This document shows positions 55,811-59,619 of a stretch of 64,000 nt of DNA, one piece after another (position 1 is the first letter of the stretch; every line of letters starts with the position of its first letter). This stretch comes from Candidatus Desulfobacillus denitrificans (GTDB lineage: Bacteria; Pseudomonadota; Gammaproteobacteria; Burkholderiales; Rhodocyclaceae). The position numbers and the translations under genes were made by a program. The stretch lies in the NCBI GenBank assembly GCA_017347485.1, contig AP021857.1, positions 1,219,390 to 1,283,389 of the forward strand, read 5' to 3'. Under the pieces are notes generated by a model. The model was not told the origin of the DNA. It ran no database searches and saw only the letters and a list, made by a program, of their open reading frames with translations.

Positions 55811-57010
55811 TTACTCGCTTCTCAGCGCCTCGAGCGGGTCGAGGCCGGCGGCGTGGCGCGCCGGGGCGACGCCGGCGGCCAGCCCGACGGCGACGGCGAC
55901 CAGTTCGGCCAGCACGGCATACGCCCAGGGCGTGTGCACCGGCAGCGCCGGAAAAGTCAGTCCCAGCAGCACGGCGATGCTCCAGCCGAGGAACAGGCCG
56001 GCCGCGCCGCCGAGGGCGGAGAGCAGCGCCGCCTCGCCGAGGAACAGCATCATGATGCGCCGCCGCGTGGCGCCGATGGCGCGCAGCAGGCCGATCTCGG
56101 AGGTGCGCTCGGCGACGCCGATGGTGAGGATGGTGAGAATGCCGACCCCGCCCACCAGCAGCGAGATGCCGCCGATGGCGGCCACGGCGAAGGTGATGGC
56201 GTCGAGCACGGTGCCGAACACCTCGAGCATCTTCTGCTGCGGCGTGAGGGTGAAGTCCTCGGCGCCGTGGCGGGCGACCAGAATGCGGCGGAGGCCGTCC
56301 TCCACCTCGGCCAGCGGCGCCGTCGGCTCGTAGGTGACGTGGATCTCCATCAGGCCCTCGCGGTTGAACATGTCGAGGGCGCGCGCCACCGGGATGAACA
56401 CCGTGTCGTCCATGTCGAAGCCGAGGATCTGGCCCTTGGACTCCATGACGCCGACGACGCGGTAGCGCTCGCCGCCGACGCGGAGGCGGGCGCCGAGCGG
56501 GTTGTCGGCGCCGAACAGCTCGGTCGCCACCTTCGAGCCGAGCACGACGAAGGCGCGCGCGGCGTGCGGGTCGTCCGGCGGCAGGTAGTCGCCGATCGCC
56601 ACCGTCATCGACAGCGCACGGGCGAAGTCCGGGCCGGTGCCGTAGAGCGTGACGCGGCGGCTCTTGCCGTAGAGCGCCACCTCGGCGTTGCCCTGCACCA
56701 GCGGGTCGGCGACCTGCACGTGGGGCGCCTTCTTCAGGGCGAGGGCGTCCTCGATGGAAAGCGGGCGCGAGGTGTTCACCGCGCCGAGCGAGGCGCCGTG
56801 CGTCTGGATGCGCCCCGGCGAGACGCCGATGATGTTGGTGCCGAACTGGGTGAACTCGGCGATGACGAAGCGGTGCAGGCCCTCGCCGATCGAGGTGAGC
56901 AGGATCACCGAGGCGATGCCCACCGCGATGCCCAGCGCCGTCAGCGCCGTGCGCATGCGGTGCGCCTTGAGCGAGGCGAGGGTGAAGGCGATGAAGTCGC
57001 GGGTGATCAT
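55811..57010 (-). CDS. ABC transporter permease, MacB/FtsX family
   Basis: RTALTALGIAVG, ISLLVGGVGI, ERTSEIGLLRAIGA. Confidence 0.92.
   Translation of the reverse strand: MITRDFIAFTLASLKAHRMRTALTALGIAVGIASVILLTSIGEGLHRFVIAEFTQFGTNIIGVSPGRIQTHGASLGAVNTSRPLSIEDALALKKAPHVQVADPLVQGNAEVALYGKSRRVTLYGTGPDFARALSMTVAIGDYLPPDDPHAARAFVVLGSKVATELFGADNPLGARLRVGGERYRVVGVMESKGQILGFDMDDTVFIPVARALDMFNREGLMEIHVTYEPTAPLAEVEDGLRRILVARHGAEDFTLTPQQKMLEVFGTVLDAITFAVAAIGGISLLVGGVGILTILTIGVAERTSEIGLLRAIGATRRRIMMLFLGEAALLSALGGAAGLFLGWSIAVLLGLTFPALPVHTPWAYAVLAELVAVAVGLAAGVAPARHAAGLDPLEALRSE
55953..55976 (+). repeat. Bipartite motif, perfect, in ABC permease 2
   Basis: AAAGTCAGTC CCAGCAGC ACGGCG; antisense, encodes AVLLGLTF. 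Confidence 0.9.
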
Positions 57011-57516
57011 TCCCCTCTCCCCAGCCCTCTCCCCGCAAGCGGGGCGAGGGGGTTGTCCTGCTCCCCTCTCCCGCTTGCGGGAGAGGGGACGGGGGAGAGG
57101 GTCAGCCGGACTTTCTCCAGCACAGACTCCATTTCCAGCATCACCTCGTTGTTCCAGAACCGCAGCACCGTAAAGCCCTCGCTGCGCAGCCATGCATCGC
57201 GCGTGGTGTCGTATTCATGCTGTTCGGCATGCTGCCCGCCGTCCAGTTCGATGATCAGCCTTTGCTCAACACACACAAAATCGACGATGTAGCGGCCGAC
57301 CGGTTTCTGTCGCTTGAACTTCAACCCCATGCAGCGGTGGGCGCGCAGGTGGTACCAGAGCTTCTGCTCGGCGTCCGTCTGGTTGCTGCGGAGTTGTTTG
57401 GCGTTTTCGAGCAAGCCCCTCTCCCCAGCCCTCTCCCCGCAAGCGGGGCGAGGGGGCGAACACCCCTCTCTCACTTGCGGGAGAGGGGAAGGGGAAGAGG
57501 GTCGGTTCTTCTTCAT
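57007..57516 (-). CDS. DUF559 (Vsr-like PD-(D/E)XK) endonuclease; alternative TTG start at 57414
   Basis: AKQLRSNQTDAEQKLW, FKRQKPVGRYIVDF, IIELDGGQH, RDAWL...VLRFWNNEV. Confidence 0.88.
   Translation of the reverse strand: MKKNRPSSPSPLPQVREGCSPPRPACGERAGERGLLENAKQLRSNQTDAEQKLWYHLRAHRCMGLKFKRQKPVGRYIVDFVCVEQRLIIELDGGQHAEQHEYDTTRDAWLRSEGFTVLRFWNNEVMLEMESVLEKVRLTLSPVPSPASGRGEQDNPLAPLAGRGLGRGE
57012..57101. repeat. CCCTCTCCC-type double-hairpin repeat, copy 1
   Basis: CCCCTCTCCCCAGCCCTCTCCCCGCAAGCGGGGCGAGGG...CCCCTCTCCCGCTTGCGGGAGAGGGG..GGGGAGAGGG. Confidence 0.9.
57416..57501. repeat. CCCTCTCCC-type double-hairpin repeat, copy 2
   Basis: First 39 nt identical to copy 1, same orientation. Confidence 0.9.
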
Positions 57517-58721
57517 CGCTTCGACAGCGCCATGACCGGGTCGAGCGCCGCCGCGCGCTTCGCCGGCAGCACGGTGAACAGCACCGAGGTGACGACGGCG
57601 GTGAGGGGGGCGGCGATCACCGCCCACCAGGGCGCGGTGAACGGGATGTCGGGGAAGGCCTGGCCGATCGCCACTTGGGCGAGCTTGCCGACGAGGAGGC
57701 CGCAGGCGCCGCCGCCCAGCGCCAGCATGACGGCCTCGGTGAAGAAGGCGGCGCGGATTTGCTGCCCCGTGGCGCCGATCGCCTTCAGCAGGCCGATCTC
57801 CTTGCGCCGCTGCGTCACGGCGATGAGCATGACGTTCATGATCAGGATGCCGGCCACCGCCAGGCTGATGGCGGCGATGCCGCCCACCGCCAGGGTCAGC
57901 GTGCCGAGGATGCGGTCGAAGGTGGCGAGCACCGCATCCTGGGAGATCGCCGTGACGTCGCGCTCGCCCTCGTGGCGCAGGCGCAGGATTTCCTCGATGT
58001 CGTCCTTGGCGTAACCGATCTGCTCGCGGCTCTTCGCCTCGACGAGGACGCGGAACAGCGCCTCGGTGTTGAACAGCGCCTGCGCCGCGGCGAGCGGGAT
58101 GACGACGATCTCGTCGGTGTTGAAGCCGAGCGACTGGCCCTGCTTGGCCAGCACGCCGACGATGCGGAAGCGCCGGTCGCCGATGCGCAGCCACTCGCCC
58201 AGCGCGGGGCGCGCGCCGAACAGCTCGGCCGCCACCGTCGCGCCGATGACGCACACCGGCTGGCTGTGGCGCGGGTCGCCCGGCGGCAGGAACACGCCGT
58301 GCGCCATGTCCATCTGCCGCACCTGGATGAACTCGGCGGTGGTGCCGAGCACCGGCGTCTCGCGGCTGCGGCTGCCGACGCGGACATCGCCGGCGCCGAC
58401 GATGAGCGGGGCGAAGCGCAGGACGGCCGGACTGCGCTTGAGCGCCAGGGCGTCGTCGATGGTGATGTCGCGCGGCGTCTTGCCGACCAGCACGCCGGGC
58501 ATGGCGCCGGCCGTCTCGGAGCGGCCGGGCAGCACGATGACGAGGTTGGTGCCGAGCGAGCCGAACTGGTTGACGATATAGAGGCGGGCCCCCTCGCCGA
58601 TGGAACTCACCGCCACCACGGCGGCGACGCCGATGCCCATGGCCAGCAGGATCAGCGCGGTGCGCGCGCGGTAGCCGCCGAGCACCTGCCAGGCGAAGGC
58701 GAGCAGGTCGGGAAACCTCAT
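57513..58721 (-). CDS. ABC transporter permease, MacB/FtsX family
   Basis: RTALILLAMGIG, ISLAVAGILIMNVM, QRRKEIGLLKAIGA. Confidence 0.92.
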   Translation of the reverse strand: MRFPDLLAFAWQVLGGYRARTALILLAMGIGVAAVVAVSSIGEGARLYIVNQFGSLGTNLVIVLPGRSETAGAMPGVLVGKTPRDITIDDALALKRSPAVLRFAPLIVGAGDVRVGSRSRETPVLGTTAEFIQVRQMDMAHGVFLPPGDPRHSQPVCVIGATVAAELFGARPALGEWLRIGDRRFRIVGVLAKQGQSLGFNTDEIVVIPLAAAQALFNTEALFRVLVEAKSREQIGYAKDDIEEILRLRHEGERDVTAISQDAVLATFDRILGTLTLAVGGIAAISLAVAGILIMNVMLIAVTQRRKEIGLLKAIGATGQQIRAAFFTEAVMLALGGGACGLLVGKLAQVAIGQAFPDIPFTAPWWAVIAAPLTAVVTSVLFTVLPAKRAAALDPVMALSKR

Positions 58722-58739
58722 TGGGCAGAAACCGCTTTC

Positions 58740-58830
58740 AACACAGCGTTCGCAGAGGCACAGAGAACACGGAGAAATTCGACTCAAAAATCTCTGTGTC
58801 CTCTGTGCCTCGGTGTTCTCCGTGTTGAAT
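58740..58830. repeat. ACAGAG/CTCTGT-type imperfect palindrome
   Basis: AACAC..GCAGAGGCACAGAGAACACGGAGA...TCTCTGTGTCCTCTGTGCCTCGGTGTT; AT-richer than flanks. Confidence 0.75.
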
Positions 58831-58840
58831 GTGTTTGGCT

Positions 58841-59524
58841 TTATCCACCGCCGCTCCTTTTGTCCTCGACGACTTCGCCGTCGACCAGGCGGATGCGGCG
58901 CTGCGCCCGCGCGCCGATCTCCGGGTCGTGGGTGACGACGGCGACGGTGCCGCCCTCGTGGTGCACGCGCTCGAGCACCGCCATCACTTCCTGGCCGGTG
59001 TGGCGGTCGAGGTTGCCGGTCGGCTCGTCGGCGAGGATCAGCGTCGGCCCCATCGACAAGGCGCGGGCGATGGCGACGCGCTGGCACTGGCCGCCGGAGA
59101 GCTGGTCGGGGCGGTGGCCGGCGCGGTCCTCCAGGCCGTACTCGGCGAGCAGCCGGTCGAGGCGCCGCCGCCGCTCGGCCGGCTCGATGCCGGCGAGCAC
59201 CATCGGCAGCTCGATGTTCTGCTCGGCGGTGAGCCGCGGCACGAGGTGGAAGAACTGGAAGACGAAGCCGATGGCCTCGCGCCGCACGCGCGCCAGCTCG
59301 TCGTCGGCGAGGCCGGTGACGTCGCGGCCGTTCAGCTCGTAACGGCCGGCGTTGGGCCGGTCGAGGAGCCCCAGCACGTTGAGCAGGGTGGACTTGCCCG
59401 AGCCCGACGGCCCCATGATGGAGAGGTACTCGCCCTGGGCGATGTCGAGGCTGACGCCGCGCAGGGCATGCACCTCCTCGCCGCCGACGCGGAAGACGCG
59501 CTCGATGCCGGTGAGGCGGATCAA
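58841..59524 (-). CDS. ABC transporter ATP-binding protein (LolD/MacB type)
   Basis: GPSGSGKST, LSGGQCQR, LADEPTGNLD, VTHD. Confidence 0.96.
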   Translation of the reverse strand: MIRLTGIERVFRVGGEEVHALRGVSLDIAQGEYLSIMGPSGSGKSTLLNVLGLLDRPNAGRYELNGRDVTGLADDELARVRREAIGFVFQFFHLVPRLTAEQNIELPMVLAGIEPAERRRRLDRLLAEYGLEDRAGHRPDQLSGGQCQRVAIARALSMGPTLILADEPTGNLDRHTGQEVMAVLERVHHEGGTVAVVTHDPEIGARAQRRIRLVDGEVVEDKRSGGG

Positions 59525-59529
59525 GCTTT

Positions 59530-59619
59530 CCCCTCTCCCCAGCCCTCTCCCCGCAAGCGGGGCGAGGGAGCCGGTTTGCTCCCCTCTCCCGCTCGCGGGA
59601 GAGGGGTCGGGGGAGAGGG
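59530..59619. repeat. CCCTCTCCC-type double-hairpin repeat, copy 3 (solo)
   Basis: First 39 nt identical to copies 1 and 2. Confidence 0.9.

Follow-up and report, generated by a model that had tools for sequence, protein, structure and literature searches.

A window of 64,000 nt from the genome of Candidatus Desulfobacillus denitrificans (contig AP021857.1, positions 1,219,390 to 1,283,389) carries a gene for a DUF559 nuclease that lies within a transporter operon and is framed by copies of a short palindromic repeat. Comparison with related genomes leads us, tentatively, to read the gene and its repeats as a promoter-less, selfish cassette bounded by units of an intrastrand triplex motif, with the encoded enzyme probably acting on the repeats. 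The cassette would be a candidate for a repeat-plus-enzyme system of the type formed by repetitive extragenic palindromes (REP) and REP-associated tyrosine transposases (RAYT), run in this case by an unrelated nuclease. The host is a four-gene MacAB-type operon, with all genes on the minus strand (gene reading and Pfam profile search). Repeat units were named L (arm plus hairpin, with a C-rich arm) and R (hairpin plus arm, with a G-rich third arm), the two being mirror images. The features under discussion, including open reading frames (ORFs), have the following window coordinates.

55811–57010, minus strand: permease 2 (perm2; MacB_PCD and FtsX), host gene downstream of the cassette, from the profile search.
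57007–57516, minus strand: cassette ORF of 169 aa, from the ATG at 57516 to the TGA at 57007, through both repeats.
57012–57101, unstranded: repeat copy 1, an L-R doublet downstream of the gene (gene sense), its L unit adjoining the gene end.
57097–57414, minus strand: DUF559 nuclease core of 106 aa, predicted Vsr-fold PD-(D/E)XK (PF04480, PDB 3HRL).
57416–57501, unstranded: repeat copy 2, an L-R doublet upstream of the gene (gene sense), its R unit adjoining the gene.
57513–58721, minus strand: permease 1 (MacB_PCD and FtsX), host gene upstream of the cassette, from the profile search.
58841–59524, minus strand: ABC ATPase of the operon, from the profile search.
59521–59634, minus strand: bridging mini-ORF of 37 aa (MSGARPSPPTPLPRAGEGSKPAPSPRLRGEGWGEGKA), covering copy 3.
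59530–59619, unstranded: repeat copy 3, a gene-less L-R doublet at the junction of the membrane-fusion protein (MFP) and ATPase genes.
59631–60806, minus strand: HlyD-type MFP (adaptor), the first gene of the operon, from the profile search.
25781–25804, plus strand: empty site with a TGATG stop/start overlap at a parE/parC-like junction, where congener G020 has a DUF559 cassette.

The cassette is fitted between the permease genes by overlapping codons, its ATG overlapping the TGA of permease 1 and its TGA overlapping the ATG of permease 2, as ATGA in both cases. The original prediction, made from the window alone, had placed a DUF559 gene between two repeats; the gene is indeed framed by copies, but it is no short ORF confined to the space between them, as the 169-aa frame runs through both. 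The order in gene sense is L-R, DUF559 core (57414–57097), L-R, so that the gene start adjoins the G-rich arm of an R unit and the gene end the C-rich arm of an L unit, and the general frame can be written as (L-)R unit, gene, L unit(-R). A conserved internal start codon in the cassette ORF was not found among the species compared at the permease junction, and there is no promoter-like or terminator-like site between 56800 and 59800, which means that the cassette must be transcribed with the host operon. It is laid out for translation by coupling, as one ORF through its own repeats, and the downstream host gene stays coupled. The mini-ORF of copy 3 begins with an ATG overlapping the stop codon of the MFP gene and ends with a TGA overlapping the TTG with which the ATPase gene starts.

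Residues 36–139 of the cassette ORF match DUF559 (PF04480) at E 2e-45, with 153.5 bits against a gathering cut-off of 20.6, and the core matches PDB 3HRL at 6e-33. Six residues (D45, E56, D58, H62, R85 and N88) are invariant among 11 aligned relatives, and the D...ExDG..H...R.N core is intact. By these matches it is an intact, predicted Vsr-fold PD-(D/E)XK nuclease, and the repeat coordinates, nuclease motifs and ABC operon context reported at first were all confirmed, as was the higher AT content of the gene (58.5% GC, against 72% in its neighbors). The median dN/dS of seven orthologues is about 0.16, and the cassette gene is under purifying selection. DUF559 is the only ORF of the cassette, which encodes no transposase of the DDE or HUH type and no serine or tyrosine recombinase. 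Membership in a defense system was considered and rejected, as there was just a weak partial match to DpdF.

Exactly two DUF559 genes are present in the genome, and both are framed by the repeat. The second one (genome positions 1174747–1175067, between hypD and hypE) is 52% identical to the gene of the window and has the order R-gene-L, with its own ATG directly after the R unit, while its ORF runs through the L unit to a TGA that overlaps the ATG of hypE. A RAYT as the driver of the repeat was rejected: the sole PF01797 (Y1) gene of the genome is IS200-like and is framed by unrelated CCCCCGGCAAAGCCGGGGG hairpins, and the repeat family is therefore without a RAYT. In this respect the proposed analogy with RAYTs and the REP doublets known as REPINs stands, since gene and repeat go together and no RAYT is present; movement driven by the nuclease is the part that we infer.

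A repeat search of the window found one family with three copies of about 90 nt (57010–57108, 57414–57512 and 59528–59626). Its 38-nt core, CCCTCTCCCCAGCCCTCTCCCCGCAAGCGGGGCGAGGG, occurs without mismatches at 57013, 57417 and 59531, and shuffled sequences gave no matches. The unit consists of a hairpin, CCCTCTCCC(C)GC-nn-GC(G)GGGAGAGGG, and a third copy of one arm. Each window copy pairs two mirror-image units as a doublet, and the L-R doublet is an almost perfect palindrome. When folded as single-stranded DNA, L-R doublets reach −32 to −40 kcal/mol (z −4.8 to −6.5). The earlier description as a double hairpin was right about the near-palindromic doublet, but the minimum-energy fold of each copy is one long hairpin, which makes the double hairpin merely an alternative fold.

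BoxC/PIT/TMECO repeats, present in hundreds of genomes, were already known in the 1990s. This G/C-rich intrastrand triplex motif, formerly BoxC or PIT, goes under the name TMECO in Holder et al. 2015 (PMC4666352), and its published consensus is CCCTCNCCC-N3-6-GGGNGAGGG-N3-GGGNGAGGG (PMC4666352). The 3.1-Mb genome contains 11 strict matches, and 53 when the spacers are relaxed to 3–8 and 2–6, while the reversed control gave none. Five of the six window units match the relaxed consensus, the degenerate R unit of copy 2 being the one that fails. Because the units fit the published consensus, the repeat is not novel but belongs to a family already described; it is of the BoxC/PIT/TMECO type, with the triplex itself predicted from the consensus fit. 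Altogether the genome holds about 70 hairpins at 52 loci, arranged as single units, L-R doublets and R-spacer-L doublets (seven of the latter). Gene pairs flanking the 26 intergenic repeat clusters are co-directional in 20 cases, convergent in six and divergent in none, using gene calls from a crude finder based on GC content at third codon positions. A separate Rfam identity was rejected, as the only matches, to generic long-hairpin miRNA models, fell below threshold.

The copies resemble other BoxC/PIT/TMECO repeats in being dispersed and highly conserved (0–120 hairpins per genome across the genus) and in their local rearrangement, seen here as doublet inversion, duplication and turnover. 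They differ in framing DUF559 genes and in being read through as coupled bridging ORFs; according to the published account, neither a transposase or integrase nor any other mobility function has ever been found beside the motif (PMC4666352). That account also reports the E. coli motif as always intergenic (PMC4666352), a rule that fails here, as units occur in frame inside polA (136687–139431), uvrD (383840–386098) and hsdM (1972584–1974236, two sites) of the source genome. Further in-frame units were observed at 13919–15253 and in lipoyl-domain linkers at 2521219–2522907 and 2523050–2525290. Such in-gene units encode peptides like PSPxPSPxxGEG, placed in inter-domain linkers or within domains.

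The junction of permease 1 and permease 2 was read in 15 congeners and occurs in three states. Seven genomes, with the source genome (G000) among them, carry the cassette (G000, G001, G003, G004, G010, G018 and G022), four species have an unrelated palindrome of about 130 nt (GTCATTCCCGCGAAAGCGGGAATCC...) that forms an exact bridging ORF, and at least four (G002, G009, G012 and G017) are empty. The empty alleles have the pristine overlap AAGCGATGATCAC, so that the empty site expected at the outset does exist. The cassette inserts are 502, 502, 514, 520, 541, 550 and 553 nt long, all 1 mod 3, and all seven are exact bridging ORFs of six different lengths despite differences in repeat number and orientation, the upstream doublet being inverted in G004, G010 and G018. 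Carriers of the cassette do not form one clade on the perm2 tree (approximately unbiased (AU) test, p 1e-9), on which at least four state changes are needed, and the empty G009 is sister to the cassette-bearing G003 with 96–99% support. As reconstructed from these alleles, gains or losses of the cassette at this junction number at least four within the genus. DUF559 dS is 2–9 times that of perm2 among the seven orthologues, an excess that may come from the weak codon bias of a gene with 58% GC.

At the MFP/ATPase junction, where copy 3 lies, the allele is empty in G011, G012 and G017, a doublet in G010 and an unrelated palindrome in G004, G006, G009 and G013; a cassette was never found there in the nine species read. 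Copy 3 is for this reason not established as a recombination scar. The suggestion that recombination between the direct repeats of a cassette leaves a solo copy of this kind found no support at the permease junction either, as there was no solo doublet among the 15 junctions read. Excision there, if any, would join AAGCGATGA directly to TCAC.

Palindromes of the GTCATTCCCGCGAAAGCGGGAATCC type (about 100–130 nt) were seen at both ATGA junctions, at L035, L041, L042 and L044 (permease) and at L056, L058, L060 and L062 (MFP/ATPase). They form an exact bridging ORF that overlaps stop and start in six of these eight junctions; the two exceptions are both MFP/ATPase, with the ORF of G013 stopping 2 nt before the ATG and that of G009 reading in frame into the ATPase gene. 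About 24 hairpins of this type occur in the genome of the window. The ATPase/permease 1 junction (58730–58836) is filled by a palindrome family of another kind (CACAGAGnnCACAGAG... / CTCTGTG...), whose palindromes are found in relatives (L144, L147, L152 and L153, at hypD/hypE and another site) at junctions that have DUF559 cassettes in other species.

The hypD/hypE junction is also variable: three species are empty, with an ATGA overlap, seven genomes have a cassette (G000 included) and four have a third palindrome family. In G020 this junction is occupied by an R unit, ATGATTGG plus the last 45 nt of a DUF559 ORF, and an L unit. By its sequence this element is an internal-deletion derivative of a cassette (R-remnant-L), which implies that gene-less repeat pairs can descend from cassettes, and that a cassette can decay to a gene-less element of repeat, remnant and repeat. 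A gene-deleted form was among the alleles anticipated originally; it is found here, but not as a solo repeat at the permease junction. Other sites with a DUF559 cassette, in G020 (parE/parC-like) and in G002, G019 and G021, are in some cases empty in G000, and pairs of empty and occupied alleles beyond the permease junction are known for hypD/hypE, parE/parC and a third site. Each DUF559 subtype is found at one junction, the perm-type in seven species, the hyp-type in seven and the C6-type in three. A separate observation at hypD concerns G018 (L154), where a solo L unit lies in frame eight codons before the stop codon; its flanking sequences, AAAGATGC and AAAAATGC, may represent an 8-bp target duplication, of which this is the single case.

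The repeat frame extends well beyond this genome. Among 26 DUF559 loci of relatives, almost all have the order hairpin plus arm, gene, arm plus hairpin, with lineage-specific arm sequences (CCCTCTCCC, CCCTCCCC, CCTTCCCCC or CCCCCCTTTG). Flanks were then scored for 78 diverse DUF559 loci from many phyla, and the inverted-repeat score between the two sides had a median of 21.5, against 9.5 for the reversed control. A strict detector found R upstream in 47 loci, L downstream in 54 and the two together in 41, with 5 and 4 for shuffled flanks, and the opposite orientations were rarer (19 and 25). Both sides thus carry the frame in 41 of the 78, compared with about 5 after shuffling, as the original prediction had expected of DUF559 homologues, and so it is not the case that homologues generally lack such flanks. 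The inner arms are specific to each cassette and conserved across species. Co-variation of arm sequence with protein distance was rejected as too weak (Mantel r 0.12, p 0.01, with poorly registered arms).

DUF559 is present in 17 of 28 congener genomes, and repeat abundance follows the cognate gene. In tests that ignore phylogeny, CT-type hairpins number 19–120 (median 51) in genomes with a CT-framed DUF559 and 0–39 (median 8) in those without (p 1e-5). A DUF559 subtype distinct from the CT-framed one is framed by a second repeat type, C6 (CCCCCCTTTGnAAAAGGGGGG plus G arm), whose hairpins number 5–83 (median 20) with that subtype and 0–19 (median 1.5) without it (p 4e-4). In a joint regression the main predictor of each repeat type was its own gene type (t 5.6 vs 0.6; 4.5 vs 2.3). 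The correlation of copy number with gene presence that had been proposed thus appears among the 28 congeners at the level of the cognate subtype, although repeats persist where the gene is missing, as in G006 and G024.

We propose that a cassette lodges at the stop/start overlaps between operon genes, and that the Vsr-fold nuclease would recognize a folded or extruded unit at the cassette ends and nick or cut there. The cut could start recombination-dependent copying, excision, inversion or conversion, and the approximately 50 gene-less repeat loci would be non-autonomous relatives, in the manner of REPIN/RAYT systems but with an unrelated enzyme. A stronger proposal, that DUF559 is the dedicated partner of BoxC/PIT/TMECO, cutting the folded unit and spreading, inverting, excising or homogenizing cassettes and gene-less copies alike, seems to us rather unlikely, if still a candidate. 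On that proposal the elements would survive in operons, and even within genes, because the repeat is open in all its reading frames.

Several observations count against the selfish-cassette reading. That DUF559 binds, cuts or transposes these repeats is something we infer from comparative anatomy, and the abundance tests are uncorrected for shared ancestry. The two cassettes of the genome are just 52% identical, and so have not been copied recently. The repeats also occur without DUF559, in G006 (32 CT-type and 14 C6-type), G024 (39 CT-type) and G047 (21). Unrelated palindromes at the same junctions mark these sites as generic hot spots. ATGA is duplicated at all bridging inserts, yet it is required as both stop and start, and the palindrome and triplex-motif alleles share the first approximately 10 nt after it, so that there is no secure target-site duplication. 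Finally, the DUF559 tree is star-like, and co-divergence of the gene with its host clades was not rejected in AU tests (p 0.17 and 0.31); interspecies exchange of cassettes was accordingly set aside as a candidate, and we make no claim of it.

Some of these points favor a different account, in which triplex repeats spread or arise independently of DUF559, by host replication or recombination on hairpins or through another enzyme, and gather at tolerant operon junctions, DUF559 being a passenger, a small selfish or accessory gene of its own that often becomes trapped between them. Repeats in the three genomes that lack the gene fit such an account, as do the two unrelated palindrome families that fill the same junctions, with bridging ORFs too, the solo L unit inserted alone and in frame in hypD of G018, and the many gene-less units in frame within polA, uvrD and hsdM. 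E. coli can be added, with 23 TMECO copies and only a degenerate unit at ycjD. A mere passenger, however, would not be expected to show a conserved orientation across phyla, with the G-arm toward the gene start and the C-arm toward the gene end, nor cassette-specific inner arms kept across species, nor a type-specific correlation of abundance with the cognate gene, and the remnant in G020 indicates that some gene-less pairs derive from cassettes. We regard the passenger account as unlikely.

The E. coli MG1655 locus may be described here (L161, 11250–11860). The ycjD gene lies after the sapABCDF ABC operon and starts behind an unrelated perfect 18-bp hairpin; it ends with a degenerate CCCTCTCCC...GAGGGGG unit, after which comes a decayed second copy of the gene's 3' end, so that just part of the frame is present.

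Vsr-like (EDxHD) homing endonucleases such as I-Bth0305I offer another model, in which DUF559 would cut the empty junction and be copied in by allele recombination, the repeats serving as padding for translatability and coupling. The cassette shares with those systems the small Vsr-fold nuclease, presence or absence at a fixed site and pristine empty alleles, and the restriction of each subtype to one junction across species is as expected of homing, as is the non-monophyly of carriers on the tree of the neighboring gene. Introns and inteins are absent here, however, and the conserved, structured terminal repeats are also found without the gene. Vertical inheritance with losses accounts for site fidelity equally well, the same repeat frame occurs at unrelated target sites, and homing leaves the approximately 50 dispersed gene-less units and the correlation of repeat type with gene type unexplained; we regard it as quite improbable. 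Least probable of all is a housekeeping role for DUF559 as a Vsr-like mismatch or repair nuclease, of the kind suggested for Caulobacter VsrA, with incidental regulatory or mRNA-structure repeats: the gene is under purifying selection, and a DUF559-domain protein of the same fold and Pfam family damages DNA in vivo in Caulobacter, in a methylation-dependent manner (PMC12907096), but here the complete genome has no C5 cytosine methyltransferase (PF00145), which deprives the classical Vsr role of its partner and led to its rejection, and the gene is a patchy, repeat-framed insert (17 of 28 genomes) of atypical GC content, at junctions for which sister species have pristine empty alleles.

Returning to the selfish cassette, its closest parallel is with REP/REPIN-RAYT systems, in which a single-copy enzyme gene likewise has inverted copies of a short palindromic repeat on both sides, and dozens of gene-less copies, often doublets folding to one long hairpin, lie in transcribed intergenic space. 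It differs in that the enzyme is a PD-(D/E)XK Vsr-fold nuclease of about 106 aa and not an HUH Y1 transposase, the unit is three-armed, and the gene is promoter-less and fused in frame with the repeats. Like terminal inverted repeat (TIR) transposons and miniature inverted-repeat transposable elements (MITEs), gene-bearing and gene-less forms have R/L terminal inverted repeats in common, but only DUF559 is encoded and no transposase. Rickettsia palindromic elements are in-frame palindromic insertions, and they too show that palindromic repeats can be tolerated as translated peptide insertions; they are not known to have an associated nuclease gene.

Two further observations in the window are recorded here. 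A PIN/VapC-like ORF (146 aa) and an overlapping Phd/YefM-like ORF (78 aa) lie directly upstream of the ABC operon (60803–61476, minus strand). An insert at another junction (42549–42767) starts with a variant arm-plus-hairpin unit (CCCCCGACCCCTTTCCCGCGGAAAGGGG) and has GCATGA on either side.

The DUF559 nucleases form a very large family for which a structure has been solved and no role agreed. A published link between DUF559 and repeats was not found in the searchable literature, and a table from 2023 lists DUF559, without comment, as enriched among predicted inversion targets. A confirmed link would explain both the nuclease family and the BoxC/PIT/TMECO repeats, and would add a non-transposase counterpart to REP/RAYT. 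The present system provides handles for this in the form of a three-state operon junction in sister species, a natural deletion derivative and two cognate gene/repeat types within the genus, along with a tolerance rule for such inserts, namely bridging ORFs that overlap stop and start exactly. If DUF559 were indeed the dedicated partner of these repeats, the pair would represent a second, independent bacterial symbiosis of repeat and enzyme, with a restriction-fold nuclease instead of a transposase.

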